64,000 bases of DNA from Centroscyllium fabricii (Eukaryota): assembly GCA_051313645.2 (NCBI GenBank), contig JBNRSN020000016.1, positions 111,290,001 to 111,354,000 on the forward strand, read 5' to 3'. The notes below the pieces were generated by a model. It made no database searches. It saw nothing but the letters and a program-made list of their open reading frames with translations, and had not been told where the DNA came from. The translations under genes were made by a program, and so were the position numbers. How positions within the stretch are numbered: position 1 is the first letter of the stretch; each line of letters starts with the position of its first letter. This document shows positions 1 through 56,996 of the stretch, in pieces.

Positions 1-77
1 AGGACCGAGAATTTGTTAAATCTACTGTATGCCTCCCTGCTGCCGTTGATGTTGAGGCTAGCTATGGTTATCTTCAT
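1..77 (-). CDS. Tx1 ORF2 N-terminus (APE endonuclease), partial
   Basis: ATG at 77 reads MKITIASLNINGSREAYSRFNKFSV, the typical SLNING motif I of Tx1/L1 endonucleases. Confidence 0.8.
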   Translation of the reverse strand, partial: MKITIASLNINGSREAYSRFNKFSV

Positions 78-452
78 ATCAGCAGTATAATACTAATTTT
101 TTCCATATCGGGGAGAAAGAGCGCAATCCTTGGATATACGCTCCTTCTTCTGCAGCCCATTGAGGAACTTCTTGAGCCGGCGCAGCTCGAGGTCATTATC
201 GCCCCTGTCCGCGGCCAAGGTTTTAATGGCGACGCGGACGGATAAAATGAGCGGCGCCAGCTCCGACCATCTTTCGATGGCCTGACGGACCAGTTTTGGG
301 TGACCCAGGCGCACGGCCACAAATTTCTGGAGCTCCGCCACGGGGATGAGGGGAGACTCGGCGGGGGGCTCGGGGCCGTCCACCACCTCATCGGTGACAA
401 ACTCCAGATCATCGTCCGCGCCCGGCTCCGAGTCCTCGTCCTCCTCCGGAAG
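1..452 (-). mobile_element. Tx1-clade LINE, 5'-truncated, running off the left edge; inserted into the gag of Gypsy A
   Basis: ORF1 C-terminus (LIPVAELQKF...WSELAPLILSVR...LRRLKKF) resembles Tx1 ORF1 and is followed by an ORF2 start. Similarity to the Gypsy C gag stops at about 453. Confidence 0.8.
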
Positions 453-1105
453 GCCATCGTGGGGGTCTCGACCCGTTGTGGTGCTGCCCAGACCTGGGCC
501 CGTTGTGGCGTGGCCCATATGTCGTAGGCGTGCGGGTTAGTGCCGCTGTACGCCTGCAATTTGATTCGGGCCCCCTCTACTGAATTGGATATTGTGATCG
601 CATCCTCGAGGGACAAAGTGTCTTTCTCCAGCAGCCGCTGGCGGGCTTCCACACATCTTAGTCCAGTTACATATGCATCGCGAACGAGGAGATTCGCCCC
701 CTCTTCAGCCGTTCTTGCTTGGCAGCCACAGACCCGTACCAGGGCCTGGAGCGCTTGCTCGAACTGCTCATTAGTCTCACCCGGTAGCTGCGATCTGGTT
801 GCAAGCACATGTCTGGCGTAGACCGAATGGACCGGGCGCTCGTAGCATTTCCTTAGCTTCTCCACAGCCGCTGGGTAGGTTGAGGCATTTCTGATGAGGG
901 AGAATACCCTGCTGGAGATCCTCGACCGGAGGACCTGTAATTTGTTCCCGTCTGTTGTAGCCTTGGCGGCGTCCATGTAGGCCTCCAGGAGGCCGAACCA
1001 GTGTTCGAACGTGGTGGCGGCGGCAAGGTCCTGGGGACTGATGTCCAGTTTCTCTGGTTTAACTGCACCGCTCTCCATTGCGGGGACGGTGGCACCGCTG
1101 TCCAT
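453..1105 (-). CDS. gag: Gag of element A, interrupted by Tx1
   Basis: KPEKLD...FEHWF...RDAYVTGLR...RQRLLE; matches element C Gag up to VETPTMA; short N-terminal duplication MDSGA/MESGA. Confidence 0.85.
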
Positions 1106-1128
1106 TTTAAACTTTTAGTGATTAAAAT

Positions 1129-1418
1129 TGACGTATCGTCAATACCTCTGATTAAAAGAGTCGACAAGTAGTTACCGTAACTAAAGGCTTTTAATCGCTA
1201 AGCTTGGAGCTACCTTCCGAACGAACATCTGCACAGGAATGAGGAGCCTCGGTCAGTCTCCACCTATAAAGGGCCTCACCTGGGGGAGGAGTTAGAGGTG
1301 TGGCTGACCTGGCTCCCGACAGTATTACACAGGTTACAGGGCTGTGCCTTACATATGCACAGCCCATTATTGGTACAATAATACAGTGGTAAAAATACAG
1401 TATAACATGGTTACCACA
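1129..1418 (-). repeat. 5' LTR of element A
   Basis: Minus strand TGTGGTAACC...GATACGTCA; TATA-like near 1265; ATTAAA near 1190; homologous to 7135-7410 and 9574-9855. Confidence 0.9.
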
Positions 1419-3622
1419 AGTAGTGGGCGAGCTTTGTCCGCGTAATTGGGGACCCACTGGGCATAGTAAGCGAAAAATCCCAAGCACCGTTTAAGGGCCT
1501 TGGGGGAGTGGGGGAGGGGGAGCTCCATGAGGGGGCGCATGTGGTCCGGGTCGGGACCGATGACCCCATTCTCCACAACGCTGCCGAGGATGGCCAGGCG
1601 GGTGGTACTAAACACACATTTTTCGGTGTTATAGGTTAAGTTCAGCGTTTTGGCGGTGTGGAGAAATTTTTGGAGGTTGGCTTCATGGTCCTGCTGATCA
1701 TGGCCACAGATGGTCACATTATCAAGGTACGGGAAAGTGGCTCGCAGCCCGTGCCGATCGACCATTCGGTCCATCTCCCTTTGGAAGACCGAGACCCCAT
1801 TCGTGACGCCAAACGGAACCCTAAGGAATTGGTAGAGGCGACCGTCAGCCTCGAAGGCAGTATAGAGACGGTCCTCTGAGCGGATGGGAAGCTGGTGATA
1901 AGCAGATTTGAGATCTATTGTTGAAAACACTTTAAACTGTGCGATCTGGTTCACCATGTCCGCTATCCGGGGAAGGGGGTAGGCATCTAACTGGGTGAAC
2001 CGGTTTATGGTCTGGCTGTAGTCCACAACCATCCGGTTCTTCGCTCCGGTTTTGACCACCACTACCTGCGCCCTCCAGGGGCTATTACTGGCCTCGATGA
2101 CCCCTTCTTTTAGGAGGCGCTGCACCTCGGACTTTATAAAATCCATGTCCCCAGCACTGTAGCGCCTACTCTTGGTGGCGACGGGCTTGCAGTCTGGGGT
2201 GAGGTTGGCAAAGAGGGATGGAGGGGCGACCTTAAGGGTTGAGAGGCCACAGGTAGTGCGTCGGGGGTGCCGTGCTGGGCTGCGGTTTCTAACCGTGAGC
2301 GAGGGAAGGGGCCCACTGAACGCCATGGTAACACTCTGGAGATGGCACTGGAAATCCAGTCCCAGGAGTAATGGAGCGCAGAGCTGCGGCAGCACGAAAA
2401 AGCTAAAATTATTGAAAAGCGCGCCCTGGACAGTTAGTGCTACTGCGCAACGCCCGGAGACGTCCGCAGATTCTGACTTAGAAGCCATTGATATTCTTTG
2501 GTGCGCAGGTATTACTTTAAGAGAGAGGTGCTTTACAGTATTAGGATTAATAAAACTCACTGTGCTCCCACTGTCGAAAAGGCACACCACCTCTTGACCA
2601 TTGACTTCCACAGGCATCATTGATTTTTCTAGTGACTGAGTCTTGTCCTGGTCGAGGGTCACCGATGCCAATACTGGGTCAGCCGATTCATCTTGATCCG
2701 AAGAGTAGTCCTCCGGGGCCGGTTCCCAAGATGGCTGCCGCCATGCGGTGTACTGTGGAGGGGGTGGCTGAGTCCAATATGGCGACTGCTGCCACGAGGG
2801 GTGCTGAGTGGGGGATGGGTGAGCCCAATATGGCTGCTCCCATGTTCCACACACGGCGCTGCCCGGTTTCGATTTCGTGGTAGCTTTACAGACCTTTGCA
2901 TAGTGTCCTTTCTTCCCACATTTCGAACAGGCCGCTTCTCTAGCTGGGCAGTTACGTCTCGGGTGCTGAGACTGCCCACAAAAGTAACATTTGGCCGTCC
3001 TCGCGTGGGCGGCTGCAATTAATTCTTCTGCCGGTCGTTGCGCCGGCGTTGTCCAAGATGGCGGGGCTGGGCCCGTATAGTTACTCGAGTAAGATGATAG
3101 GTTTAGCGAGGCCACATCCAGCGCGTTCCCCAGGTCCGCAGTTGCCTGCAGGTCAAGGCCGTTCTGCTCTAGCAGCCTCTGTCTTACATAGTCCGACCTG
3201 AGGCCTGTTACATACGCATCTCTAATGAGACTGTCCGCATGGACCGGGGCTGTTAGCGCTCTGCAGTCACAGGCCCGCGAAAGCACTCTCAGAGCTCTTA
3301 GAAACTCCACACTTGACTCACCGGGTTGCTGCTTTCTGGTGGCAAGGATATGCCTAGCGTGGACGATGTTGGGTGCCCGATTGTACTCGGCTTTGAGAAT
3401 CCTGATGGCATCCAAATAAGATGAGGCGTCCACGATCATGGAGTACACCTGAGGGCCCACCCGGGCGTTGAGGAGCCGTCGTTTGTCCTCTTCGGTCACC
3501 ACGACCGCTGCGTTTGCTTTTAGGTACGCATCGAAGACACTGTGCCAGTGTGTAAAAGTGTTCGATGCGCCTGGTGTTCGGGGGTCCAATTTGAACGTTG
3601 CTGGCTTGAGCATGGTATCCAT
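1419..3622 (-). CDS. gag-pol: Gag-Pol single ORF of element B (Gag, two zinc knuckles, protease, RT), open up to the A insertion
   Basis: CYFCGQSQHPRRNCPA...CSKCGKKGHYAKVC; LFDSGS; VPFGV; YLDN. Confidence 0.92.
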
Positions 3623-3934
3623 CTTCAAAAGTAGTCAATAAAATTGTGACCTGAAATAACGACCTCGTGGACGAGTAGTTAGATGAAGAAACAATTAGGC
3701 TTTTATTGACTACAAGCTGGGACACACACCAGCTAGTCGACTGTCCCCAGGTATGGTCGGGGGATGGGAGGCAGCCACCTATATACCTCCTCCTGGGAGG
3801 GAGGAGTCGTGGGCGGAGCCAACCCGGGGCATGTCCCAGTAATCGTATTACAGTACAGGTATTACATCAATACACATCAATGCATGTCAGTTAACTATAT
3901 ACATATAATACTTATGATAAACGGGTTTATCACA
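1419..3934 (-). mobile_element. Ty3/Gypsy element B (Mag-like), 5' half; inserted into element C and interrupted by A
   Basis: 5' LTR 3645-3934 (TG...CA, TATATA near 3780, AATAAA near 3702); element C pol resumes at 3935 (VRSRSLP). Confidence 0.9.
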
Positions 3935-6900
3935 GGGAGGCTACGGGATCTAACAAAGTGGGCGAGTCTGGTGACACCCGGGTGGCAAAGGTGGTCGTGG
4001 AGGTCCTTCAGCCGGTCTAGCTGGGCACTGGCGCACGTTCCCCTGGACAGTGCGTCCGGGGGTTCATTGAGTTTGCCTGGTCGGTAAAGAATGTCATACT
4101 CGTAAGTCGAGAGTTCGATCCGCCACCGCAGGATCTTATCATTCTTGATCTTACCCTTCTGTTTATTATTAAACATAAACGCCACCGACCATTGGTCGGT
4201 GAGAAGGGTAAAACACTTACCGGCCAGGTAATGACGCCAGTAGCGCACGGCCTCCACGATGGCCTGGGCCTCCTTTTCCACTGCAGAGTGGCGAGTTTCG
4301 GGTTCCTGTCGGGTGCGGGAGAAAAACGCTACGGGCCTGCCTGCCTGATTCAGGGTGGCAGCAAGGGCGAAGTCCGAAGCGTCGCTCTCCACCTGGAAGG
4401 GAATGGATTCATCAACAGCGAGCATGGTCGCTTTGATGATGTCTTCCTTTATCCGGGCAAATGCCGTTTGGGCTTCTACCGAGAGGGGGAAGACGACAGC
4501 CTTGAGGAGTGGTCTAGCCTTGTCCGCGAACTGTGGGACCCATTGTGCGTAGTAGGAGAAAAATCCTAGGCATCTCCTCAAGGCTTTGGGGTTGTGAGGT
4601 AGGGGCAGTTCTTGTAGGGGGCGCATACGCTGTGGGTCGGGGCCGAGGACCCCGTTCTCCACCACGTATCCAAGGATGGCGAGCCGGTCTGTATTAAAGA
4701 CACATTTGTCCTTGTTATACGTAAGGTCCAGCTTATCCGCCGTGTCGAGGAATTTGGCCAGATTGGCAGCGTGGTCCTGCTGGTCGTGGCCGCAGATGTT
4801 CACGTTGTCCAGGTAAGGGAAAGTGGCCCGCAACTCGTTCTGGTCAACCATGCGGTCCATCTCCCGTTGGAACACTGACACTCCGTTGGTCACGCCGAAG
4901 GGGACCCGGAGGAAGTGGTAGAGCCGACCGTTCGCCTTGAAGGCGGTGTACGGGCGGTCGGCTTTCCGGATCAGGAGTTGGTGATACGCCGACTTAAGGT
5001 CGATCGTGGAGAACACCTTATATTGGCCGATCTGATTGACCATGTCCGAGATGCGGGGGAGGGGGTAGGCGTCGAGTCCGGTGTAGCGGTTGATAGTCTG
5101 GCTGTAATCGATAACCAGCCGCTGTTTCTCGCCAGACTTCATCACTACCACCTGGGCCCGCCAGGGGCTGGTACTGGCTTCAATTATCCCCTCCTTCAGC
5201 ATACGCCCGACCTCCGACCTGATAAACGTGCGATCCCCCACGCTGTACCGCCGACTCTTTGTAGCAATAGGTTTGCACTTGGGGTCGAGATTGGCGAACA
5301 GTGAGGGGGGGTCGATTTTCAGGGTGGAGAGGCCGCAGGCCGGGCTCCGCTTTGGGAAGGGACTGTCCCAGCTACTGACGGTGAGGGGGGGCAAGGTCCC
5401 GCCGAACTCCATTGTCACGCTCTTGAGGTGGCACTGGAAATCCAGACCTAGTAAGGCTGGGGCACACAACTGCTTGAGGGTGTACAATTTAAAATTACGG
5501 TACACGCAACCCTTGACTGTGAGCGTGACGGAGCAGTAGCCGGTGACGTCCGCGGTGTGGGACTGTGAAGCCAGGGAGACTTGGTAGTTCGTGGGCAGGA
5601 TCTGCAGTCCATAGTGCTGCGCTGTATCGGGGTGTATAAAAGTCTCCGTGCTTCCAGTGTCAAACAGACAATTGGTAATATGGCCGTTAATTTTAATCGG
5701 CATGATTGAGTTAGAAAGGTTGTGTTGCCTAGCCTGGTCCACTTTGGGTATGGCTGAGGCCGAAGTGTGCCTTTGTGTGTGGGGGCCCCCTGCTGGTTGG
5801 GGCTGTACCCAAAATGGGTACAGCCCCAACCACCTGGCTCGCACATGGTGGGGGACTGGAGACAAAATGGCGGCGCCGAGGGGTCGCACATGGCGGGCTG
5901 CTGGAGACAAGATGGTGGCGCCAGGGGGTCGCACATGGTGGGCCGCTGGAGACAAGATGGCGACGCCCGTGGTTCGCACGCGGCTGACCGCTGTGAGCGC
6001 GCTGGCGGCGCCCGTGGTTCACACGCAGCAGGCCGCGGTGACTGGGTTGGCAGTGCCCGTGGTTCACACGCAGCGAGCCGCGGTGGTTGGGTTGGCGGTG
6101 CCCGTGGTTCGCATGCAGCGGGCCGCGCTGGGTCTGCCGCTGGCGTTGGGGGGTCGCGCTTGGCCGGCCGTGGCTGGGCTTGGCGTGCCGTGGGTGCAGC
6201 CGGCCTTTGCCGCATCAGGGTGGGAGATGGGGGCGCTTTCCTTCTACCCCCGGACCGTCGCTGAATCGCGCTGCTATTGCAGATTACCTGAGGCCTGGCG
6301 GAGCTTTCACAGGCTGTGCTGTTGTACCTGGAGTTGGGCGCTGCTGGTGCTGATCTGCAGGCCTTCGCATAGTGTCCCTTTTTGGAGCACCTCTCACAGG
6401 TCGCGGTCCTCGCTGGGCATCTCGCTCGTGGGTGCAGTCCCTGGCCGCAGAAATAGCACCGTTTGTCCTTTGCGGCTGTCGCAGCCATCGTAGGGGTCTC
6501 GACCCGTTGTGGTGCTGTCCAGGCCTGGGCCTGTTGTGGCGTGGCCCACATGTCGTAGGCCTGCGGGTTTGTGCCGCTGTACGCCTGCAGCTTATTGCGT
6601 GCTCCTTCCACGGAGTTAGCTATGGAGATCGCCTCCTCAAGAGTCAAAGAGTCCTTTTCGAGCAGCTGCTGGCGGGCTTCCACGCACCTCAGGCCTGTTA
6701 CATACGCATCTCGGATGAGGAGATTCGCCTCCTCTTCTGCTGTCCGGGCTTGGCAGCCACAGACCCGTACCAGGTCCTGGAGCGCTTGCTCAAATTGTTC
6801 GTTAGTCTCACCCGGTAGTTGTGGTCTGGTCGCGAGCACATGTCTGGTGTAGACCGAATGGACCGGGCGCTCGTAGCATTTCCTCAGCTTTTCCACTGCC

Positions 6901-7109
6901 CCTGGGTAGGTTTTGGCGTCTCGGATGAGGGAGAATACTCGGCTGGATATCCTAGACTGGAGAACCTGCAATTTGTTCCCGTCGGTTGTAGCCTTGGCGG
7001 CGTCCATATAGGCCTCCAGGAGACCGAACCAGTGTTCTAACGTGGTGGCGGCGGCTGGGTCCTGTGGACTGGTGTCCAGCTTCTCTGGCTTTACCGCACC
7101 GCTCTCCAT
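3935..7109 (-). pseudogene. gag-pol: gag-pol of element C, frameshifted in the linker and cut by B
   Basis: Overlapping ORFs 5448-7109 and 3895-5979 carry Gag and Pol motifs. Confidence 0.85.
5835..6130 (-). repeat. Degenerate 45-bp tandem repeat in the Gag-Pol linker of element C
   Basis: Recurring 15-aa units PAACEPRAPP.../PPSCLQQPAMCDP. Confidence 0.75.
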
Positions 7110-7410
7110 TTCAAAATTTTTAAGTTAATAAAATTGACGTATCGTCAATTGTCTTAATAAAAGACTAAACGAGTAGTGACTTTAACTATTGGCTTTTATT
7201 AATTTACTTTGGAGCTACCCTCCGAACGAACATCAGAACAGAATGAAGGAGCCCCGGTCAGTCCTCACCTATAAAGGCCTCACCTGGGGGAGGGGTTAGA
7301 GGTGTGGCTGACCTGGCTCCACGACAGTGTTGCAAAGCGGTGTATCATACAAAGCCAATGTTGGCGACAATATTACAGTGGTAATCGTATATACAATATG
7401 GGTTACCACA

Positions 7411-11247: not shown

Positions 11248-11444
11248 CAACCCTTTGAGTGACATTCCCCAATCAATCCTACCCAATTCGTGCCCCATAC
11301 CATCATAGTTTCCTTTATTTAAATTCAGGACTCCAGTCTCTGAGTCAACTACTTCACTCTCCATCCTAAAGAAGAATTCTATCATATTATTGTCATAGGT
11401 TGGCTCTTCCCCTTTAACTCTTAGGTTGGCTCTTCCCCTTTAAC

Positions 11445-11482
11445 GCTCCTATCTTCTATGATTCTATGATTCTATGATTCTA
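11445..11482 (+). mobile_element. 38-bp CR1/SINE 3'-tail insertion present only in the 5' LTR of G
   Basis: GCTCCTATCTTCTATG(ATTCTATG)2ATTCTA flanked by TAAC; absent from the 3' LTR. Confidence 0.8.
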
Positions 11483-11686
11483 TAACTGGTTATCACCTCA
11501 TTAGCTCTACTGCCTGCACCTGATTGAACAGCCCAGATTAACCAGTGGTAATCAAGAGCTGTATATAAGCTCCTACTTTCCACCTAGAGGTTGCCAGATC
11601 GTTATTCTTTCTGACTGGGATACCTGTGTTTAGTTCCTAGCTCTCTGATCCTGTCTGTTCGAGATACTGACCTGCTTACTGGAAAT

Positions 11687-11900
11687 TTGGATTCTCTTCT
11701 GCTTGAACTCTGTTTTGGATTTGTCGCTCCCGTGGACGGACTACCCGGTATTATACTGTTTCTAAATTTAGATTCTCTTCTGCCTGAACTCTGTTTTGGA
11801 TTTGTCGCTCCCGTGGACGGACTACCCGGTATTATACTGTTTCTGAATTTGGATTCTCTCCTGCCTGAACTCTGTTTTGGACTTGTTGCCTCCGTGAACT
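11687..11900 (+). repeat. 81-bp tandem repeat (about 2.5 copies) in the G LTR; also at 19931-20140
   Basis: Unit TTGGATTCTCTTCTGC...TATACTGTTTCTRAAT repeated. Confidence 0.9.
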
Positions 11901-12032
11901 TTCTGCCGTTATTGACCTACTGTTTCCTATGTCTTTTACTGCTCAGAAATAAAGGAGTTTACTTCTACGTATGTTTTTGGTGTATTGCATTTGGGCCCAA
12001 CCTACAACCGTTACAGAACGATCTGGCCAGAA

Positions 12033-13001
12033 ATGGACCCAGCAGACACACCGGATCGTCTTGCACAGGTCGAGTGCACCCTAAGGCACCAGGGGCAGGC
12101 CTTGGGGAGGCTATTCACTCAATTGGATCAGCTAACCGCCGCCCTGATCCAACAGGCAGCTGAGGACGCGGAAGGGATCCCACCACCACCGGTTCTTGCT
12201 CCAGCATCGGTGTCGGCATCCATGCCTCACCCACAAGGCCTCACACCGGAACCCCGGGTCGGGGTCCCGGAGCGTTATGCCGGTGAACCTGAGGAATGCA
12301 ATCCCTTCCTCACAAACTGTTCCATTCTTTTTGCATTACAGCCCCACACCTTTGCCAATGAGGCGGCAAAGGTAGCCTTTGCTATTAACCACCTTACAGG
12401 AAGAGCTCGCCTCTGGGGAACCGCCGAGTGGGAGAGAGAGACTCTGGCTTGCTCTTCCTTCCAGATGTTCGCCATCGAATTAAGAAGGGTGTTCGGCATG
12501 GTGACCTACGGCTCTGAAGCAGCTCGGGGACTCATGAATCTGAGCCAGGGTAATCAGACAGTGGCCGACTATTCCATAGATTTCCGAATCAGAGCTCGTC
12601 AGAGTGATTGGAACTCTGCTGCATTATGTGACGTTTTTCTCCATGGGCTTGCAGAGTACATCAAGGATGAACTGGTCTCCTTTGATCTCCCTTCCACCCT
12701 GGATGAACTAATTAGTCTTGCCACCAGGATTGACCTCCGTATCCAGACGCGTCGACGTGAGAGACGACTGGGAACGACTGGCCGACCTCCTCCGAAACGG
12801 TCTCAAGAGATTTTCGTGGCACCCAGGTCTACTGCGACAGCAAGGTCACAGTCAGTGGAGCCCGAACCTATGCAGTTGGGTCGCACCAGCCTCTCATTGG
12901 AGGAGCATGAACGACGCCGCCAGGGGAATCTCTGTCTGTACTGTGGGCAGGCCGGCCATTTTGTTTCCCGATGCCCAGCAAAAGGTCGGGCTCACCAGTA
13001 G
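12033..13001 (+). CDS. gag: Gag of G (capsid plus CCHC knuckle; PEG10/RTL-like)
   Basis: [15 protein letters not shown]...EPMQLG...[14 protein letters not shown]. Confidence 0.93.
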
Positions 13002-14188
13002 ATGGGGTCGTACTGGTGAGCCGAACTCCTACAAGACTCTCTTCCAATCCACGACCCTTGTGCCAGGCCAGACTTCTTCTTCCCAGTGGATCCCAGACTC
13101 TCGCCACCTTTATTGACTCTGGAGCCGACGTTAACATTATTGATGAGGATCTTGTCACACAGCTGGAGATTGACCGGGTTCCTCTGCCGCAGCCGGTTCC
13201 TGCCAACGCCCTCGACGGTCACCTCCTGGGAACGGTGACACATCAGACCTCACCGGTTCACATGCTTATGTCGGGTAATCATCATGAAAGTATTCAGTTT
13301 CATATCCTGAAATCACCTCGGCTTCCTTTGATTCTGGGACACACTTGGCTTCGCCGCCACAACCCCCACATTGACTGGAATACGGGAACTATTCTGGGGT
13401 GGAGTTCCTCCTGTCACCAGGTCTGTCTGAAACAGGCTACCGTCTCCCGACAGCCATTAACACCTCTTCCCGCTTCTGATCTTTCGGTGGTCCCCACTGA
13501 ATACCACGATTTTAGGGAGGTATTCAGCAAAGCTAGAGCCACGTCGCTGCCTCCACATCGCCCCTATGACTGCGTCATTGATCTGCTGCCAGGTTCTTCC
13601 CCACCCAAGGGACGCCTGTATTCCTTGTCTGCACCTGAGAGGGAAGCCATGGAAACGTACATCAGCGACTCTATGGCGGCGGGGATCATCCGTTCCTCTT
13701 CATCACCTGCTGGGGCTGGATTCTTTTTTGTTGGTAAGAAGGACGGGTCGCTGCGACCATGCATCGACTACAGGGGTCATAATGACATCACGATAAAGAA
13801 CCGGTATGCTCTTCCTCTCATCTTTTCTGCTTTTGAGTTGCTACAGGGGGCGATCATCTTTACTAAGCTGGACCTTCGTAACGCCTATCATCTGGTCCGG
13901 ATCCGAGAGGGCGATGAATGGAAGACTGCTTTCAACACTCCCTCTGGACATTATGAATACCTCGTAATGCCGTTCGGGTTAACCAACGCCCCGGCGGTAT
14001 TCCAAGTCTTGGTTAATGACGTATTAAGAGACATGCTGAACCGGTTTGTGTTCGTTTACATGGACGACATTTTAATCTTTTCTAAGTCTCGTGAGGAGCA
14101 TGTTCACCATGTCCAGACTGTCCTGCAACGGCTTCTCGAGAACTCGTTATTTGTGAAAGCGGAGAAGTGTGAGTTTCACATCATTACC

Positions 14189-17100
14189 TGTAAGGGATCG
14201 GTTTAGGACCCAAATGCAGAAACACCGGAAGTCCGTAAGCAGACACAAATCACCTTTATTCCCAAAACCAAAACCTATATATATATATATAACGATATCA
14301 TAAACCACAGTGCAATAACAATGAATGAAAATAGTCAATAATCCCGAGTGTCGGTAAAACAGCAGTTCCAAAGTCCAAACCCCTAATTCAGGTGGTTGTA
14401 GTAACAAGGCCCAAAGCCTGGTGCAGAGGTACTCCCAGTAATCCACAGTCCAGGGAAGGTGACTCCTTGTTCCGAGTACAGCAAGTAATCCAACTCGACA
14501 GAAAACTGGTAATCCAAAAACGACTTGAATAGAACTTAAATATAATATATCAAATAACAGGATACAGAACACTTCTCACTCTCTCAGTACCAGAAACAAA
14601 CGAACTGGCAAAGATCAGGTGTCGACTGGAGGCTAATAACCATCTCCAGCTAAATTGTATAATTGGAGCCAGCCAATCCAGTGAAGGACATGATAAATGA
14701 AGTCATAACTCAATAAACAGAAAGGAAACCCTTAGAAACTTAAAGGAACAGTCCAATAAACAGAAAGAAAAACCTCTATATACTTAAAGGAACAGTTCAC
14801 CCCATGACAGAACCCCCCCCTCAAGGGGGCGACTCCTGACGTCCCAAAGCCTCAAATGCCGGATCAGACGGGTAAAGAAGTGTGGAGGGGAACAAATAGT
14901 CCTCGAAGCACTCCTCTATGTCCGTCTCATAATCTGACTGAGAAGAATCCTCTTCGTCAGCAGATTCCCACTCATCATCAGGTTCCTCCTCCTTGGTCAG
15001 GCTCTCCTGTAACTGAATGGATCCGATGACTTGCCTAGATCCCTCAAGAGTCGAAGTCTCCTTGTCTGGCTGGTCGAGGTGGCTCAAATGAGAGTCGCTA
15101 ATGGGTTGCGTATCCCTTATATCGTGAGTAGGAAACGAGAGCTTCTCCGCTGGGCCATACTCCCTCTGCCCAACCTGTTTCTCAGGAGACCCAGAACGAC
15201 TATGGTTGGCAGCAGGCGGGTCTCGGTCCGCCGCGCGAAGGCCAGAAGTCTGAGCCCGTCTCAGACAGCCCTGGTGACAGGAAAGGTTCCAGCCCAAAAT
15301 ATCTCCTGTTTTCCAATCAATGTGCGGGTTGTGGCGACGAAGCCAAGCGTGTCCCAGAATCAACGGAATCTGTGGTGATCGTAAGATGTGGAACTGAATA
15401 CTCTCCTGATGATCTCCAGACATAAGCATCAGAACAGGTGAGGTCTGGTGTGTCACCGTTCCCAAGAGATGGCCATCAAGGGCATGGACAGGATACGGCT
15501 GTGGTAGTGGCTCCTGGTCAATCCCCAGTTGCGTGACCAAATCCTCATCAATTATATTAATGTCAGCTCCAGAGTCAATACATATGATGAGACTCTGGGA
15601 TCCCCTGGGGAGAAGAAATCTTGCTTGACACAAAGGTCGTGGGTTGGAAGAGAGGCCATCAGGTGTTCGGCTCATCATTACGACTCCATTGATAGGTGAG
15701 TGCGGTCCCTTATACCTCGCTGGCCGAAAACCGGTGCGGCCCAGCTGCATAGGCTCAGGACCCCCTGGCTCCGCCCCTGCAGTAACAGTATCTCTGGATG
15801 ACCCGAATCTTCCTTGAGTGCGACCCCATTGCATTGATTCGGGGCCCACTCGCTCTGACCTAGCTATCGCAGTCTCCCTGGGTGTCATGAATACATCTGG
15901 AGTTCGACTCGGAGGATGTCGACCAGACGTTCCCAGACGTGTCTCACGTCGACGCGCCTGGATGCGAAGATCGATCCGGGTGGTCAGATAAATGAGTTCA
16001 TCTAAGGTGGGGGGAAGGTCGTAGGAGACCAGGTCATCCTTGATATACTCGGACAGACCATGAATAAACACCTCCCGTAAAGCGGCCTGATTCCAATCAC
16101 TCCGACGAGCCCTGATACGAAAATTTATAGCGTAATCAGCCACCGTCTCATTTCCCTGGCACAGACTCATGAGTCCCTGAGCTGCTTCAGAGTCGAATCT
16201 CACCCTGCCAAACACCCTTCTCAATTCAGTGGAGAACGCCTCGAATGAAGAACAAGCCTGAGTATTTCTCTCCCACTCAGCGGTTCCCCAAAGCCGGGCT
16301 CTATCCGTGAGGTGATTAATAACGAAAGCTACTCTTGTTCTCTCATTGGCAAAGGTGTGGGGCTGCAACGAAAACAGTATGGAGCAGCTTGTGAGAAAAG
16401 GCTCACACTGCTCGGGATTACCGGCATACCGCTCTGGTACCCCGACACGGGGTTCGAGAGCGGAAGCTATTGGTTGAAGCATGGGTGCCAGTCCCCTCTC
16501 AGAATCCAGGAGAGATGGTGGCGAGGCCCCTGCCGAATCCGACGCTAACCGTAGATTCCAGGTGACAGTTAACTGCTCAATTTGAGAGCTATTCTTGGTA
16601 ATTAATTCTCCCAAGATCTGACCGAGGTGTGCTATGGTCTCCTCGATTTGTGTCAGGTGTCTCAGTGTCTCCGCTGGGTCCATATTGGCCAGTTCGTTCT
16701 GTAAGGGATCGGTTTAGGACCCAAATGCAGAAACACCGGAAGTCCGTAAGCAGACACAAATCACCTTTATTCCCAAAACCAAAACCTATATATATATATA
16801 TATAACGATATCATAAACCACAGTGCAATAACAATGAATGAAAATAGTCAATAATCCCGAGTGTCGGTAAAACAGCAGTTCCAAAGTCCAAACCCCTAAT
16901 TCAGGTGGTTGTAGTAACAAGGCCCAAAGCCTGGTGCAGAGGTACTCCCAGTAATCCACAGTCCAGGGAAGGTGACTCCTTGTTCCGAGTACAGCAAGTA
17001 ATCCAACTCGACAGAAAACTGGTAATCCAAAAACGACTTGAATAGAACTTAAATATAATATATCAAATAACAGGATACAGAACACTTCTCACTCTCTCAG

Positions 17101-17322
17101 TACCAGAAACAAACGAACTGGCAAAGATCAGGTGTCGACTGGAGGCTAATAACCATCTCCAGCTAAATTGTATAATTGGAGCCAGCCAATCCAGTGAAGG
17201 ACATGATAAATGAAGTCATAACTCAATAAACAGAAAGGAAACCCTTAGAAACTTAAAGGAACAGTCCAATAAACAGAAAGAAAAACCTCTATATACTTAA
17301 AGGAACAGTTCACCCCATGACA
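14189..17322 (-). mobile_element. Non-autonomous LTR element H encoding only Gag-protease, inserted into the RT of G
   Basis: LTRs 14189-14809 and 16700-17322 look identical apart from one TA unit; PPT at 14813-14823; flanks ATTACC/ACTACC. Confidence 0.93.
14821..16683 (-). CDS. Intact 620-aa Gag-protease fusion with an acidic tail; no CCHC, RT or integrase
   Basis: Homologous to G Gag; IDSGADIN protease in the same frame; ORF fills almost the whole internal region. Confidence 0.9.
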   Translation of the reverse strand: MDPAETLRHLTQIEETIAHLGQILGELITKNSSQIEQLTVTWNLRLASDSAGASPPSLLDSERGLAPMLQPIASALEPRVGVPERYAGNPEQCEPFLTSCSILFSLQPHTFANERTRVAFVINHLTDRARLWGTAEWERNTQACSSFEAFSTELRRVFGRVRFDSEAAQGLMSLCQGNETVADYAINFRIRARRSDWNQAALREVFIHGLSEYIKDDLVSYDLPPTLDELIYLTTRIDLRIQARRRETRLGTSGRHPPSRTPDVFMTPRETAIARSERVGPESMQWGRTQGRFGSSRDTVTAGAEPGGPEPMQLGRTGFRPARYKGPHSPINGVVMMSRTPDGLSSNPRPLCQARFLLPRGSQSLIICIDSGADINIIDEDLVTQLGIDQEPLPQPYPVHALDGHLLGTVTHQTSPVLMLMSGDHQESIQFHILRSPQIPLILGHAWLRRHNPHIDWKTGDILGWNLSCHQGCLRRAQTSGLRAADRDPPAANHSRSGSPEKQVGQREYGPAEKLSFPTHDIRDTQPISDSHLSHLDQPDKETSTLEGSRQVIGSIQLQESLTKEEEPDDEWESADEEDSSQSDYETDIEECFEDYLFPSTLLYPSDPAFEALGRQESPP

Positions 17323-20300
17323 ACTACCGTATCTTTCTTGGGGTACATCATTGCGCAGGGGAGCGTGCAGATGGATCCAGAGAAGGTGTCAGCTGTCGCG
17401 TCATGGCCTATTCCAGAGACACGTAAACAGCTACAGTGGTTTCTGGGATTCGCTAACTTCTATCAACGGTTCATTCGCGGCTACAGCACGGTAGCGGCCC
17501 CATTATCAGCCCTTACCTCCTCTAAGGTGCCGTTCCTGTGGTCTTCTGCAGCGGAAGAGGCTTTTCGAGGTCTCCGGTCCCGGTTAACCTCTGCTCCCAT
17601 TCTCCAGGTGCCTGATCCGGATTGGCAGTTCGTGGTAGAGGTGGACGCATCAGATGTTGGAGCAGGGGCTATTCTGTCCCAACATTCTGCTTCCGACCAA
17701 AAGCTACATCCCTGTGCCTATTTTTCCAAACGCCTGTCCTCGGCTGAGATGAATTATGACATCGGGAACTGGGAATTACTGGCGGTCAAGATGGCATTGG
17801 AGGAGTGGCGCCATTGGCTAGAGGGGACCAAGCTGCCGTTCCTAGTCTGGACAGACCATAAAAACCTTGAATACATTCGTACGGCCAAGAGGCTGAATTC
17901 ACGGCAGGCTAGGTGGTCCCTCTTCTTTACCCGTTTCAACTTCAACCTCTCCTACTGGCCTGGTTCTCGCAATGTCAAGCCTGATGCTCTGTCCCGCCAG
18001 TTCCAGAAGGAGGAGAGTTCCGCTCCTGGATCTGACCTCATCCTTCCAGCTCCTTGTCTGATTGCTGCTGTTACGTAGGAGATCGAGGAGAGGGTGAGAT
18101 CAGCCGTGGAAGATCAGGCTGGACCCAGCGGTTGTCCTCCCGACCGTCTATTCGTTCCCAAGAACCTTCGACCTGATGTTCTCCAGTGGACCCATGCTTC
18201 CAAGCTTTCCTGCCATCCGGGGGCTCAAAGGACCAAGGAGGTTATACTGCGGAGGTTCTGGTGGGATACTCTGGAAGAAGACACCCGGGAGTTTGTCAAC
18301 GCCTGCTCGGTCTGCAACCAACACAAGCCATCTCATCGGGCTCCCGCTGGTCTTCTGCAACCTCTGCCGGTACCACATCATCCTTGGTCCCACATATCCT
18401 TGGACTTTGTTACCGGTCTGCCCCCATCCAAGGGACTAACCACTATCCTGACAGTGGTGGACCGATTCAGCAAGATGGCCCATTTCATACCTCTGCCGAA
18501 ACTGCCCTCGGCGAAGGAGACGGCTGAACTTATGCTGCAACATGTTTTCCATCTTCATGGTCTTCCTGTCGACGTAGTCTCTGATCGGGGTCCACAGTTT
18601 ACGTCAGTATTCTGGAGGGAGTTCTGCAGTCTGATCGGGGCCACAGTCAGTCTGTCATCGGGTTTTCATCCGCAGTCCAACGGGCAGTCTGAACGTATGA
18701 ATCAGGAGATGGAGAAGGCTCTACGATGTATGGTCTCCCAGAATCCCTCTTCCTGGTCCCAGTTACTCCTGTGGGTAGAGTACGCTCACAACACCCTGAC
18801 CAGTTCCGCCACCGGACTCTCCCCGTTCCAGTGCGCCTATGGGTTCCAGCCCCCATTGTTTCCGGATCTGGAGAGGGAGGTTTCCTGTCCATCCGTCCAG
18901 TCATTTATTCATCGCTGTCGCCGGACATGGGACCAGGCACGGACTTCGTTGCTTCGCTCGGCGGACCGCTACTCGGCTGCTGCCAACCGTCGTCGCTCGG
19001 AGGCTCCTAAATATCAGGCTGGGCAGAAGGTGTGGTTCTCCACTAAGGACCTGCCCCTCCAGGTGGAGTCTAAGAAGCTAGCTCCCAGGTTTATCGGGCC
19101 CTTCGAGATCCAGAAGGTCATTAACCCAGCGGCAGTGAGACTCAAGCTTCCTCGATCCATGCGGGTTCATCCCACTTTTCATGTGTCGCGGGTCAAACCA
19201 GCATGAGAGAGTACTTTGGTGCCTGTTGCCACGCCCCCTCCGCCTCGTCGTATGCTCGACGGTGGGTTGGTCTACACTGTTCGTCGCCTACTTCGCTCCC
19301 GTCGTCGAGGGAGAGGACTTCAGTACCTGGTGGACTGGGAGGGGTATGGTCCAGAGGAGAGGTCCTGGGTTCCTGCTCGTCACATAGTTGATCCTCAGCT
19401 TATGGCCGACTTCCACAGAAGGCATCCCGACCAGCCGAGTAGGAGGACTGCGCCCCCTGGGGTGTCTGGGCAAGGGCCCAGTTCCGTGCATTCTCTTGAA
19501 ACCCTGAACGAGGAGGTGCAATCCTCTGATGAGGAGAATTCCCTTCATTCTGGTGATGAAATGGACGTGGATGAGGGTCCCGAGGAATATTAGTCCCTCC
19601 TCCACACCCCTCCGCCCACCCGACTCCGGCATTTGGGGTTTGGGACGTCGGGAGCTGTCCCTTGAGGGGGAGGTTCTGTCATAGGTTGGCTCTTCCCCTT
19701 TAACTCTTAGGTTGGCTCTTCCCCTTTAACTGGTTATCACCTCATTATCTCTACTGCCTGCACCTGATTGAACAGCCCAGATTAACCAGTGGTAATCAAG
19801 AGCTGTATATAAGCTCCTACTTTCCACCTAGAGGTTGCCAGATCATTATTCTTTCTGACTGGGATACCTGTGTTTAGTTCCTAGCTCTCTGATCCTGTCT
19901 GTTCGAGATACTGACCTGCTTACTGGAAATTTGGATTCTCTTCTGCTTGAACTCTGTTTTGGATTTGTCGCTCCCGTGGACGGACTACCCGGTATTATAC
20001 TGTTTCTGAATTTAGATTCTCTTCTGCCTGAACTCTGTTTTGGATTTGTCGCTCCCGTAGACGGACTACCCGGTATTATACTGTTTCTGAATTTGGATTC
20101 TCTCCTGCCTGAACTCTGTTTTGGACTTGTTGCCTCCGTGAACTTTCTGCCGTTATTGACCTACTGTTTCCTATGTCTTTTACTGCTCAGAAATAAAGGA
20201 GTTTACTTCTACGTATGTTTTTGGTGTATTGCATTTGGGCCCAACCTACAACCGTTACAATTATGATCGCTCTGACCCAAGGGGCCTCGTACAACAAGAT

Positions 20301-21704: not shown

Positions 21705-23339
21705 TGGATGTTGAGTTCCCAGCCTTGGCCACCCTGGAGCCATGTTTCTGTAATCCCAATCAAACATATTCATTTACCTCTATTTGTTCGATCCGATGTT
21801 TGGCCCCTTGCGGTAACAGTCAGGGGCGCGCTCTCCCATTCGTCATCCGGCTGGCGGGTGCGTAGATTAGGGGGCCATACTGTGCTGCCTGCAGGTGCTG
21901 GGTGGGTATACCGTGGTTCTTGTCCCTCGTGGGGAGCGGCGTACCGTGGTGCTGGTGCCCCAAAGGTGGCGGTAGGCAGGGGGGGGGGGTGCGGGCTGAT
22001 GGGTTGTACTGGTCTTGGGGGCACCCGCTGGTGCCAGGTCCTTGATGGACACTGTATCCTCCCTCCCATCAGGATACGCCACGTAGGCGTACTGGGGGTT
22101 GGCGTGCAGGAGGTGGACCCGTTCGACCAGGGGGTCCGACTTATGGCCCCTCACGTGCTTCCGGAGCAGGACGGGTCCTGGGGATGATAGCCATGACGGC
22201 AGCGAGGTCCCTGAAGCCGACTTCCTAGGGAAGGCAAAAAGTCGCTCGTGAGGGATGGCGTTAGTGGCCGTACATAAAAGTGACCAAATGGAGTGGAGCG
22301 CTTCGGGGAGGACGTCCTGCCAGCGGGAGACTGGGAGGCCTTTAGACCGTAGGGCTAACAGGATGGCCTTCCAAACGGTGGCGTTCTCCCTCTCTACCTG
22401 TCCGTTCCCCCGGGGGTTATAGCTGGTAGTCCTGCTAGTAGCGATGCCCTTGGCTAGCAGAAACTGACGCAGCTCGTCACTCATAAAAGAGGCCCCCCGG
22501 TCGCTATGAATGCAGCTGGGGTAGCCGAACAGGGAGAAGATGCTGTGCAGTGCCCTGATGACCGTGGAGGAGGTCATGTCCGGGCATGGGATGGCGAAGG
22601 GGAAACGCGAGTACTCGTCAATGACGTTTAAAACGTACGCGTTGCAGTTGGAGGAGGGGAGGGGCCCTTTAAAGTCGACGCTGAGTCGCTCAAAGGGGCG
22701 GGTGGCCTTTATCAGGTGCGCCCGGTCTGGCTGAAAGAAGTGCGGCTTGCACTCCCCACAGACCTGGCAGTTCCTGGTCATGGTCTTGACCTCCTCGATG
22801 GAGTAGGGGAGGTTGCGGGACTTAATGAAATGGACCAACCTGGTGACCCCCGGGTGGCAGAGGTCGTTGTGCAGGGTCTGGAGACGGTCCACTTGTGCGC
22901 TGGCACATGTACCGCGGGACAGGGCATCTGGGGGCTCATTGAGTTTCCCGGGCCAGTACAAGATATCGTAATTGAAAGCAGAGAGCTCAATTCTCCACCT
23001 CAATATCTTGTCGTTCTTGATTTTACCCCGCTGTTTGTTGTTGAACATGAACGCGACTGAGCGTTGGTCAGTCAGTAGGGTAAATCGTTTGCCGGCCAGG
23101 CAGTGCTTCCAGTGTCGCACTGCTTCAACAATGGCCTGGGCCAGTGTTGGCCGTGAGCGCGCTAAATGAGCGCGCGTTCACGAGCGCGTTCACATTTTCG
23201 TGAACGCTGAACGAGCGCGCTCTTTCCCAGCAGCCTGAGCGAAAATGTGAGCGTCGCTCAGTCTGCAGGGTTTGAGCGGCGCTCTCGCGCTCGCGGTATG
23301 TGGAGTCTGAATCGCTGCTGCCTTCCGCGCCATCGGGAC

Positions 23340-23693
23340 GGTGAGTGCTTTGCTTTGCTGCCTTCCGCGCCGGTGAGTGCTTTGCTTTGCTGCCTTCCGC
23401 GCCGGTGAGTGCTTTGCTTTGCTGCCTTCCGCGCCGGTGAGTGCTTTGCTTTGCTGCCTTCCGCGACGGTGAGTGCTTTGCTTTGCTGCCTTCCGCGCCG
23501 GTGAGTGCTTTGCTTTGCTGCCTTCCGCGATGGTGAGTGCTTTGCTTTGCTGCCTTCCGCGACGGTGAGTGCTTTGCTTTGCTGCCTTCCGCGCCGGTGA
23601 GTGCTTTGCTTTGCTGCCTTCCGCGACGGTGAGTACTTTGCTTTGCTGCCTTCCGCACCGGTGAGTGCTTTGCTTTGCTGCCTTCCGCGCCAT
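23340..23693. repeat. 32-bp minisatellite (about 11 copies, runs into the gap)
   Basis: GGTGAGTGCTTTGCTTTGCTGCCTTCCGCG(CC/AC) units. Confidence 0.95.
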
Positions 23694-23834
23694 NNNNNNN
23701 NNNNNNNNNNNNNNNNNNNNNNNNNNNNNNNNNNNNNNNNNNNNNNNNNNNNNNNNNNNNNNNNNNNNNNNNNNNNNNNNNNNNNNNNNNNNNNNNNNNN
23801 NNNNNNNNNNNNNNNNNNNNNNNNNNNNNNNNNN
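23694..23834. other. Assembly gap (141 N)
   Basis: Run of N. Confidence 1.
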
Positions 23835-23852
23835 TAGCTTACATACCTGCCT

Positions 23853-24190
23853 ATTTAGAAAGATAGGAGCAGGAGTAGGCCATTCAGCCCTTCAAGCCTG
23901 CTCCACCATTCAATGAGATCATGGCTGATCATCCAAACCCTGTAACCTGCCCTCTCCCCATATCCCTCGATCCCTATCGAGCCTGCACCGACACATATCC
24001 CACCCTATTCCCATAACCCCACATATTCAATCCCCCTAACACTAAGGGTAAATTTATCCTGGCCAAAAACCCACGCAGACATGGGGAGAATGTGCAAACT
24101 CCACACAGATAGTACCCGAGGCTGGATTTGAACCCGGGTCTCCAGTGCTGTGAGACCGCAGTGCTAAGCACTGTGCCACCGTGCCGCCCT
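23853..24190 (-). mobile_element. HE1-like V-SINE with CR1-type tail
   Basis: tRNA-like head (GGGTTCAAATCC B box), V-domain GTGTGGAGTTTGCACATTCTCCC, CR1 tail; matches 58305-58700. Confidence 0.85.
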
Positions 24191-27100
24191 ATATACTCAG
24201 CCTGTGTATATACATACAGACAGTTCTCTATTTGTTCCTCCTGCTTCATAATTTGCATTGCCCCAAAATGACTCTACCCCCTGCATAATAGGAAACTACT
24301 GACACAATGATTCAGTGATAAAACTTATAAAGTAATCAGCTTCTATTATTCTTTAATGGGCTGTAGCAATGATTGGGGGCTGTCAGTGGATGGATAAGAG
24401 GATGTTCTATTGAAAAATAATAGCTCGGGGCAGCGCATTAAAAGAAAAGAAAAAAAAAAACGAACTTTGAACTAGTTCATTTTTGAGCTGCGAACTTAAG
24501 TTCAAAATTCAAAATTATGAACTATGAACTTGAACTAGTTCATTTTAAAATGTTTGAACTGAACTTTGAGCTAGCTCTTGTTAAGTGTGAACTTTCCCAA
24601 CACTGGCCTGGGCCTCCTTCTCAACGGAAGAGTGTCGGGTCTCGGGGCCCTGCAGAGTGCGCGAGAAGAAGGCCACGGGTCTGCCCGCCTGGTTAAGGGT
24701 GGCGGCCAGGGCAAAGTCGGACGCATCGCTCTCTACTTGGAACGGGATGGCCTCGTCCACAGCGTGCATCGCGGCCTTTGCAATGTCTTTTTTTATGCCG
24801 CAGAAGGCCGTGCGGGCCTCTGCCGACAGGGGAAAGGTGGTTGATTTAAGTAGTGGGCGGGCTTTGTCTGCATAGTTGGGGACGCACTGGGCATAATAGG
24901 AAACGAACCCCAGGCACCTTTTCAGGGCCTTGAGGGAGTGGGGGAGGGGGAGCTCCAGGAGGGGCTGCATGCGGTCTGGGTCGGGACCGATGACCCCATT
25001 CTCCACAACACTGCCGAGGATGGCGAGGCGGGTTGTCCTGAACACACATTTTTCCGTGTTATAGGTCAGGTTCAGATTTTTGGCGGTGTGGAGAAATTTC
25101 TGGAGGTTGGCGTCATGGTCCTGCTGGTCGTGGCCGCAGATGGTCACATTATCAAGATACGGAAAGGTGGCCTGCAGTCCGTACTGATCAACCATTCAGT
25201 CCATCTCTCTTTGGAAGACCGAGACCCCGTTGGTGACACCAAACGGAACCCTGAGGAAGTGGTAGAGGCGGCCATCTGCCTCGAAGGCAGTATAGTGATG
25301 GTCCTCTGAGCGGATGGGGAGCTGGTGGTACGCAGACTTCAGATCGATGGTGAAGACCCGATACTGGGCGATCTGGTTCACCATATCCGCTATGCGGGGG
25401 AGGGGATACGCATCTAGCTGCGTAAACCGGTTGATGGTCTGACTGTACTCCACAACCATCCGGTTTGGCTCCAGTCTTCACCACCACTACCTGCGCCCTC
25501 CAGGGGCTATTACTGGCCTCGATGACCCCCTCCTTCAGGAGCTGCTTCACCTCAGACTTGATGAAGTCTCTGTCCCCGGTACTGTAGCGCCTACTTTTGG
25601 TGGCGACGGGCTTGCAGTCCGGGGTGAGATTGGCAAAGAGCGAGGGGGGGCGACCTTAAGGGTCGAGAGGCCGCAGGTAGCGCGCTGTGGGTACTGCGGG
25701 GAGCACTGGTTGCTGACTGTGAGCGGGGGAAGGGGCCCACCGTACACCATAGTAACGCTCTGGAGGTGGCACTGGAAGTCGAGGCCCAGCAGTAATGGAG
25801 CGCAGAGCTGCGGCAGCACGAATACTTTAAAAATCTGGAAGTGTACGCCCCGCACTGTCAGGGTCACTACTTAACGACCGCAGACGTCCGCAGATTCGGA
25901 CTTAGATGCCATCAAGATTTTTAGGTTAGCCGGCATGACTGTAAGGGAGAAGCGCTTTACCGTATCTGGGTGGATGAAGCTCGCCGTGCTCCCGCTGTCG
26001 CAAAGGCAATCCGTACTCCGCCCGTTCACCTGCACCGTCATCATGGATCTGCTCAGTGGCTGGCTCTTGTTCTGGTCGAGTGTGATGGAGGCCAGTATCG
26101 GGTCGGTCGAGAAGTCTGGGGCCTGGTCCCAAGATGGCTGCCGCCACGCGGCGGGCTGTGATGGAGATGGCTTTGTCCAAGATGGCGTCTGCTCCCACGC
26201 GGCGGGCTGTGATGAAGATGGCTGTGTCCAAGATGGCTGCCCCCACGGCCCACACGCGGCGCTGCCCGGTTTGGAGGGCGGTATTGCCGCTGCTCTGCAG
26301 ACCTTAGCGAAGTGTCCTTTCTTACCGCACTTAGAGCAGGCCGCGTCTCTCGCCGGGCAATTTCGCCTGGGATGTTGGGCCTGGCCGCAGAAATAACACT
26401 TAGGCCCTTTCGAGTTCGTAGCCGCAATCATCTCTTCCGCCGGTCGCGGCGCGGCGGCTGAGTCCAAGATGGCGGCGTCCACGATGTGCCCGCATGGTCG
26501 CCCGAGTAAGAAGACATGTTATGGGATGCCAAGTCCAGCGCATTCCCAAGGTCAATCGTCGCCTGCAGGTCCATGCCATTCTGTTCCAATAGTCTCTGGC
26601 GGATGTAATCGGACCTGAGGCCAGTCACATAAGCGTTCCTGATGAGACTTTCCGAGTGCACCTGGGCTGTCTGTGACTTACAGTTGCAGGCCCGGCAGAG
26701 GACTCTCAGCGCTCGTAGGAACTCCACGCTCGTTTCCCCGGGTTGCTGCTTTCTGGTGGCCAGGAGGTGTCTGGCATGGACGAGGTTCGGTGTCCGGTTA
26801 TATTCGGCTTTCAGAATTCGGGTCGCCTCTACGTAGGACGTAGCGTCCGCGATTATAGAGTAAACTTGAGGGCCCACCCGGGCATTGAGAAGGTGCAGCT
26901 TGTCCTGTTCCGTCTGGATGACCGCCGCGTTGGCTGCGAGGTACGCCTCAAAACAGCTGAACCAGTGCGTAAAAGTATTGGAGGCGCCTGGTGTTTGGGG
27001 ATCCAGTTCGAACGTCGCTGGTTTGAGCATGGTCTCCATGGTTAAATTTAGCTAATAAAATTGATACCGTATCAATGACCTCGGAGACGAGAGGTTACGA

Positions 27101-27329: not shown

Positions 27330-27625
27330 CTTGGTTTGCATTTTTGATGATGTGGAGGTGCCGGTGTTGGACTGGGGTGGACAAATGCAAGAAGTCACAC
27401 AACACCAGATTATAGTCCAACAGTTTTATTTTAAATCACAAGCTTTCGGAGCGCTGCTGACGAAGGAGCAGTGCTCCGAAAGCTTGTGATTGAAAATAAA
27501 ACTGTTGGACTATAACCTGGTGTTGTGTGACTTCTTGCATTTGCATTTTTGATGGCTTTGCTAACTTGTGTTGCAACTTTTAGTGATTTGTGTATTTGTA
27601 CTCTGAGATCCCTTTATTCCCCATA
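27330..27625 (-). mobile_element. Probable upstream piece of CR1 #1
   Basis: Reads RDLRVQIHKSLKVATQVSKAIKNANQ, the segment normally about 20 codons before LYRTLVxPHLEYC (7933). Confidence 0.7.
27350..27539. mobile_element. Penelope-derived inverted mini-element with hammerhead core (27457-27489)
   Basis: Two opposed terminal-repeat arms; 15-bp flanking repeat TTTGCATTTTTGATG. Confidence 0.85.
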
Positions 27626-27629
27626 CTTT

Positions 27630-28320
27630 CCTTATTAGCTGGGTATCAAATATATGAGCTGGGAGGTTATGCTTGAACTGTAAAGAACACTAGTTAGAGT
27701 ACAGCATTCCGTTTTGGTCACATTACAGGAAAGATGTGATTGCACTGGAGAAAGTACAGAGGAGATTTACGACGATGTTGCCAGGACCAGAGAACTTTAG
27801 CTATGAGGAACGATTGGATAGGCTGGGGTTGTTTTCTTTGGAATAGAGGTGACTGAGGAGAGGTCTCTTTGCCTGACGAAGGGGCAAAAGCTCCGAAAGC
27901 TTGTGATTTAAAATAAACCGTTGGACTTTAAACCTGGTGTTGTGTGACTTTTTGCATTTGTCCACCCCAGTCCAACACCGGCACCTCCGCATTATAAAAT
28001 TATGAGGGGCCTAGATCGAGTAGACAGGATGGACCTATTTCTCTTAGCAGAGAGGTCAATAACCAGGGGGCATAGATTTAAAGTAACTGGTGTAAGGATT
28101 AGAGAGTTGAGAACTGTTTTCACTGAGAGGGTGGTGGCGGTCTGGAACTCTGCCTGTGAAAGGGTGGTAGAGGCAGAAACGCGCATCACATTTAAAAATG
28201 CTTGTGATATGCACTTGAAGTGCTTCATTCTACAAGACGACGGATCAAGCGCTGGAAAGCGGAATTCGGCTGGACGGGTCGAATGACCGCCTTCTGTGCC
28301 CTAAGTTTCTGGGATTTTAT
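27630..28320 (+). mobile_element. CR1 3' fragment containing a Penelope terminal repeat (27872-27992)
   Basis: MRGLDRVDRMDLF...TRGHRFKV; insert has CTGACGA...GAAA core. Confidence 0.8.
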
Positions 28321-56930: not shown

Positions 56931-56996
56931 TTAATCTTGCATAATCCTGGGAGCTGTGATTTATGGAATATACCGCCCCCTATCTTGGTAAATGGT

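Follow-up and report, generated by a model that had tools for sequence, protein, structure and literature searches.

A full-length sushi-type chromovirus, here called G, was identified at 11391-20259 (plus strand) of the window, by which the whole 64-kb stretch of DNA analysed is meant. Its LTRs lie at 11391-12015 and 19677-20259, its Gag carries a CCHC knuckle, and protease, reverse transcriptase (RT), RNase H, integrase and chromodomain (PR-RT-RH-IN-chromo) are encoded in a second frame. G was broken by in-frame stops at 18076 and 19204 and by the insertion of a further LTR element, a candidate satellite (14189-17322, minus strand, 3,134 bp), which stands antisense inside the RT gene of G and is present as one copy in the window. 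The LTRs of G contain an 81-bp tandem repeat of 2.5 copies, with a 42-bp extra stretch bearing an 8-bp repeat in the 5' LTR and one change in the self-primer copy of the 3' LTR.

The inserted element is bounded by a 5' LTR (16700-17322, minus, 623 bp) and a 3' LTR (14189-14809, minus, 621 bp), both of the form TG...CA, the latter with an AATAAA signal at 14255-14260. A 43-bp tandem duplication (17224-17309, minus) was found in the U3 of the 5' LTR. The two LTRs showed 0 substitutions in 621 bp, the sole difference in the alignment being 2 nt in a (TA)n run, and the upper 95% bound on their divergence was 0.48%. The element was recently inserted by retrotransposition, as its LTRs are identical and it is nested in the older G, for which 4 differences were counted between the two LTRs over 568 aligned sites. 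Its flanks, ATTACC (14183-14188, plus) and ACTACC (17323-17328, plus), form a 6-bp target duplication with one mismatch, and G has a perfect 5-bp duplication. The RT stretch at the insertion site holds five residues in 62 of 62 scorable intact Pol proteins, and the two halves of G together hold seven. A mismatched 6-bp duplication beside identical LTRs is an atypical oddity; data on Tf1 are processed with a 5-bp shift (PMC11042837).

All signals for replication in cis could be placed between or within the LTRs. The primer-binding site (PBS; 16688-16698, minus) is of the self-priming type, its 11 nt being perfectly complementary to LTR positions 17112-17122 (minus). This self-primer is predicted to form the first 11 nt of the transcript and begins 30 nt past a degenerate TATA-like site (17146-17152, minus), a putative promoter which aligns with the TATA box of G. 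The same pair exists in G with one compensating A/T exchange, which is counted as good evidence that both elements self-prime from the predicted transcript start. Folding of the whole leader gave nothing beyond shuffled sequences (z of -0.20 and +1.49, the G stretch beginning one base late), so the assignment rests on the direct PBS match. A PBS complementary to the RNA 5' end is described as a feature of the Tf1/sushi group, the V clade (PMC6317226). The polypurine tract (PPT; 14813-14823, minus) overlaps the stop codon of the open reading frame. Thus the near-identical LTRs, self-priming site, PPT and 620-aa frame of the original prediction were all recovered at exact coordinates, with no LTR mismatch and a perfect 11-nt pair. 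The same prediction held the LTRs to be different from those of G. They are indeed diverged (357 matches, 173 mismatches), but they are homologous end to end, with an alignment score of 28 vs -120 +/- 18 in 100 shuffles, and homology throughout means that the entire element goes back to a G-like ancestor. The two elements agree in the first 6 and last 5 bases of the LTR and in 10 of 11 PBS bases, and their PPTs are nearly alike; this copy of G is broken, and the target-duplication lengths differ.

The interior is occupied by a single ORF of 620 aa (P0001; 14821-16683, minus), which starts 5 nt after the PBS, ends on the PPT, and encodes a Gag-protease fusion followed by integrase and chromodomain scraps and an acidic tail. 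Pfam matched Gag (DUF4939, Retrotrans_gag and Ty3_capsid) and aspartic protease in this ORF, with no match for knuckle, RT, RNase H, integrase or chromodomain, all of which were matched in the frames of G. Pfam and the comparison with G therefore bear out the claim that the knuckle and the gag/pol frameshift were lost and protease was fused in frame. The exact protein was absent from the protein collection searched, and the named matches were nearly all fish retrotransposon proteins. In the ESM Atlas there was one match at 0.91, to a SCAN plus protease cluster, and others below 0.9, which were not used as evidence.

The predicted structure consists of a long N-terminal helix (H3-48, within aa 1-48; 16540-16683, minus), a two-lobed capsid and a protease, modelled with high confidence. 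The capsid (aa 78-256; 15916-16452, minus) is 77% identical to that of G, the whole Gag part (residues 1-289) 65%, and the capsid C-lobe model fits PEG10 CA (7LGA) at 0.8 A rmsd. It is followed by a linker ending in MQxGRT, present as two diverged tandem copies (15733-15906, minus; 53 of 84 nt identical), which differ from each other more than either differs from G. The predicted doubling of the motif could be attributed to an 84-nt duplication; the element is alone in it among 72 fetched proteins carrying MQxGRT, none of the 291 other fetched proteins having two. The CCHC knuckle that follows the linker in G is absent, and a basic stretch remains at the former knuckle site, with 17 K/R in aa 240-330. 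The aspartic protease (aa 331-472; 15268-15693, minus), in frame with Gag and 78% identical to that of G, has its DSG at aa 370-372 (15576-15568, minus), the protease dimer being the textbook pair, and its model resembles proteases of the Ddi1/HIV type.

Downstream of the protease, two decayed in-frame scraps were revealed. One stems from the C-terminal helix of integrase (aa 476-507; 15163-15258, minus) with 53% identity to G, the other from the C-terminal half of the chromodomain (aa 509-541; 15061-15159, minus) with 42%. The integrase helix has two prolines, where 63 of 63 intact Pol proteins have none. The predicted absence of pol domains thus holds for RT and RNase H, which have no Pfam match, but not in full for integrase and chromodomain; of the RT, RNase H, integrase and chromodomain of an autonomous chromovirus, the element has decayed scraps only. 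The acidic tail (aa 564-596; 14896-14994, minus; 18 D/E in 33), likened to that of G from the outset, is homologous to the Pol tail of G, and the ORF continues after it for 24 codons beyond the position of the G stop. The low pLDDT of the tail was not counted as decay, few aligned rows covering it. A tail-only search gave 5 matches among 335 candidates, with no member of the element's family.

In trees of capsid (best 24 of 123 candidates plus G) and protease (all 23 candidates plus G), both built without PEG10 and Sushi-ichi, the element was sister to G with support of 100/98 and 88/97, respectively, and the pair fell among fish-type, sushi-type retrotransposon proteins. Branch lengths in the capsid and protease trees were 0.26 and 0.30 for the element, 0.052 and 0.012 for G, so that nearly all change between the two sits on the element's branch. 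This separate long branch and the diverged LTRs agree with the original view that the element is not a simple deletion copy of G. G itself is near fish Pol proteins, with RT up to 87% identical and very short branches, a closeness that would suit horizontal transfer if the host is a cartilaginous fish.

The age of the integrase loss was approached through conserved columns in 113 newly fetched proteins, 63 of which have intact RT, integrase and chromodomain, 51 of these 63 also having protease. The element departs from the conserved residue at 6 of 44 protease columns, within the normal range (21 of 51 Pol as high), at 6 of 11 columns of the integrase helix (2 of 63 intact Pol as high) and at 9 of 17 of the chromodomain scrap (0 of 63). 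The scraps combined (15/28) differ from protease (6/44) by Fisher's test (p=0.00046), and G has 5, 1 and 1 departures at the same protease, integrase-helix and chromodomain columns. Against 11 matched outgroups, departures were 9-17% in capsid, 4-17% in protease, 33-46% in the integrase scrap and 39-67% in the chromodomain scrap, which places the decay of the scraps on the element's branch and not on that of G. An earlier conserved-site test (23/195 vs 14/31, p=3.6e-5) was replaced, as it had included the doubtful integrase outgroups P0006 and P0091.

The proposed dN/dS check, made pairwise against G, gave 0.16 for capsid and 0.19 for protease, a comparison which alone cannot separate an autonomous from a satellite phase; the N-terminal region reached 0.59 and the linker 0.86. 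The dN to G was 0.13 in both capsid and protease vs 0.30-0.41 in the scraps, which are short (32 codons of integrase, 33 of chromodomain). The ratio of 0.97 in the integrase scrap is partly due to low synonymous change, and for the chromodomain scrap and the acidic tail pN/pS is near 0.5 and the intervals extend to about 1, so that neither is clearly neutral. If the scraps approximate the neutral rate, the branch dN/dS of the element would be roughly 0.3. Neutral simulations at 0.15 or more changes per site left a frame of 620 codons open in 0 of 1500 runs, those at 0.1 in 3 of 1500, and the tail alone remained open in 3-23%. With P0002 as outgroup, the element and G have 22 vs 6 changes in capsid and 16 vs 4 in protease; because both domains change faster on the element's branch, constraint on them is relaxed.

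Decayed scraps beside conserved capsid and protease indicate that selection on these two domains long outlasted the loss of integrase function, and the old decayed interior between identical LTRs points to repeated retrotransposition after that loss, in a lineage which still inserted recently. The conserved-column tests and dN/dS thus support the proposal of a mobile non-autonomous element under purifying selection for capsid and protease. The integrase-helix stretch (15163-15258, minus) was also retained in the independently deleted P0002 (aa 513-529), and its synonymous change is low in the element (6.5/26 sites vs 111.5/233 in capsid plus protease). An RNA signal or a hotspot of recombination may lie there, as far as a small sample regarded post hoc can suggest.

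In its anatomy, an intact Gag-protease ORF that lacks RT and integrase and is framed by LTRs, PBS and PPT, the element matches a semi-autonomous Gag-protease LTR element. With good probability, it is a semi-autonomous satellite, long-lived as a lineage, that borrows RT and integrase from a G-like chromovirus of the sushi/V clade. An ancestor close to G would have gone through a series of in-frame losses, of the knuckle with the frameshift region, of everything from RT to most of integrase, and of SH3 with the first half of the chromodomain; each junction is visible in the ORF, and the order given is a presumed one. The pre-knuckle linker would have been duplicated in the element's ancestor, and template switching could be the source of the deletion joints. 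By eye, one junction has a donor-like AG|GT, and short microhomologies account for the joints. An origin from spliced G RNA was rejected, as the acceptor sides are without pyrimidine tracts and another junction is without GT.

The LTR would transcribe a single RNA serving as both mRNA and genome, and its translation would give a 1:1 Gag-protease protein, probably self-cleaving by analogy with PEG10 and Ty3 (PMC10076021). The capsid could then carry its own RNA into particles holding the RT-RNase H and integrase of a G-like helper. As the ORF lacks a knuckle, mixed particles would be likelier than particles made of its own protein throughout, and RNA could be bound by the basic linker or by helper Gag. 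The RNA would prime itself in cis, and helper integrase would act on the conserved LTR ends. Selection would keep capsid, protease and the open frame if protein-making copies are packaged better, for which mouse IAP 1-delta-1 gives a precedent. The earlier suggestion was that the element makes its own capsid; given the missing knuckle, entry into the particles of a helper is equally likely. No intact helper was seen in the window, and the degenerate TATA site counts against the satellite reading.

The selection on capsid and protease might instead date from an autonomous phase, the element having arisen once, by recent deletion, from an unseen and fast-evolving sister family that was already single-ORF and knuckle-less, with these LTRs. 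Such an origin is quite unlikely. It would fit the single copy in the window and the inability of pairwise dN/dS to tell the phases apart, and Tf1 is a knuckle-less, single-ORF relative. Deleted copies also exist, for 4 of the 291 fetched proteins (P0002, P0045, P0046 and P0133) lack RT and combine Gag and protease with pieces of the integrase end or the chromodomain. The knuckle is retained in all four, and the pieces are larger or less decayed than those of the element; recent deletion or the joining of gene models may account for these proteins. However, the sister family would have needed a working integrase with the two prolines that none of 63 intact Pol has and a chromodomain more decayed than in all 63, with decay on the element's branch and not on that of G, and several junctions would all have to be in frame. 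The imperfect target duplication beside identical LTRs would also suit an assembly artefact or a host gene, old and fixed, in which gene conversion had made the LTRs alike. Either is very improbable: the element is nested in G, whose LTRs differ at so few sites, the identity of its interior to G is about 73-80%, too low for a collapsed repeat, and the N run of the window lies at about 23.7 kb, outside the element.

The main alternative role for the protein is interference with the helper, through poisoning of G-type particles; it could also be kept for host service, as a Gag co-opted from a family that is still mobile. A dominant-negative protein would fit the loss of the knuckle, which binds RNA, and of the frameshift, which rations protease, RTL8 is described as entering PEG10 particles and reducing their number (PMC11684626), and the Gag of the non-autonomous zebrafish Bik elements is credited with developmental roles (PMC12067270). 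Against this stand the retention and co-variation of all replication signals in cis, the youth of the insertion in a transposon-dense region, the basic stretch persisting at the knuckle site, and the fact that selfish selection accounts for the data without host benefit, so that interference or host service as the main reason is unlikely. Beyond the satellite reading, the element could belong to a vertebrate family that is thriving, selfish selection having sufficed by itself to trim a sushi element to a capsid and protease working without knuckle or frameshift, the co-translated capsid capturing its own RNA, the integrase-helix stretch serving as RNA signal, and the same reduction recurring in other fishes. 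This is a speculative extension, conceivable and on the whole doubtful; if true, PEG10/RTL-like genes could usually have been built from such satellites and not from full-length elements.

The general design has been described in wheat, where RLG_Sabrina_SA and RLG_WHAM are semi-autonomous Gypsy families thought to depend on autonomous RLG_Wilma (PMC9744471). Like them, the element lacks RT and integrase and has LTRs and an intact Gag-protease ORF. The wheat families are plant families of thousands of copies, whereas the element is a vertebrate-type self-priming chromovirus derivative, seen once, knuckle-less, with a doubled linker and translated integrase and chromodomain scraps. Families of LTR elements with Gag only are reported from wheat, coffee and zebrafish (PMC11302176, PMC4350172, PMC12067270). 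RLG_Quinta, with helper RLG_Cereba (PMC11302176), and TR-GAG (PMC4350172) resemble the element in being short and non-autonomous, with LTRs and a single Gag ORF. Quinta was derived from its helper, with PBS and LTR ends in common, and has Gag plus an unknown domain; the LTR ends of the element are similar, not identical, to those of G. Both are without protease, TR-GAG families having been selected for lacking it, in contrast to the conserved protease here; the element is under 4 kb with a single ORF, as TR-GAG are, and its protease excludes it from them.

In vertebrates, mouse IAP 1-delta-1 has an internal deletion that created one fusion ORF; it needs proteins in trans, and the fusion aids its retrotransposition in cis (review PMC6466679). 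It is the best precedent for a parasite keeping its ORF; it is retrovirus-derived with parts of gag and pol removed, and in the element the capsid is whole and the protease conserved. Zebrafish Bik-1 and Bik-2 (PMC12067270) are likewise young non-autonomous LTR elements retaining a Gag ORF, but are endogenous retroviruses with Gag only and a demonstrated host role. The proposed likeness to a stage before the domestication of PEG10 proved weak in its details. PEG10 and RTL3 (PMC10516033, PMC10604271) share sushi-related capsid and protease without RT and integrase; they are, however, fixed host genes without LTRs, and PEG10 retains CCHC (PMC10604271) and the -1 frameshift (PMC10516033), both lost from the element, which has two identical LTRs, PBS and PPT. 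The analogy is a loose one, of outcome and not of route.

No report of a Gag-protease-only element in the vertebrate sushi clade was found; Repbase/Dfam entries or supplements of fish and shark repeat surveys may hold one. Surprise is limited because of the design known from wheat, and the knuckle-less sushi form with doubled linker is the unusual part. This one copy shows that sushi-type capsid and protease can stay selected without RT and integrase in an element that is still mobile. It makes testable whether Gag-protease trimming of the PEG10/RTL3 type needs host benefit or arises earlier in selfish satellites, and, as a natural experiment, lets packaging be studied where the zinc knuckle is missing and each capsid comes with one protease.

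Other repeats were also identified in the window. Copies of a second Gypsy lineage, 73-88% alike, lie at 74-7124 (apparently nested), 21867-27051 (minus) and 31248-34791 (plus), with one 755-codon frame holding knuckle, protease and RT in a single ORF. A third Gypsy element, decayed and with an integrase core, is found at 39821-42930 (plus). The host is probably a vertebrate of fish grade, and the many fragments that are presumably CR1-like by their motif may point to a cartilaginous fish; of 2 such frames submitted to Pfam, neither was matched. Two unrelated 32-bp minisatellites occur at 23339-23691 (11 copies, adjoining the N run) and 57568-58042 (15 copies). A 90-bp inverted repeat (56993-57182; 97% complementary, 10-nt loop) is built from a dispersed repeat which also occurs at 11142, 27384-27998 and 43550.
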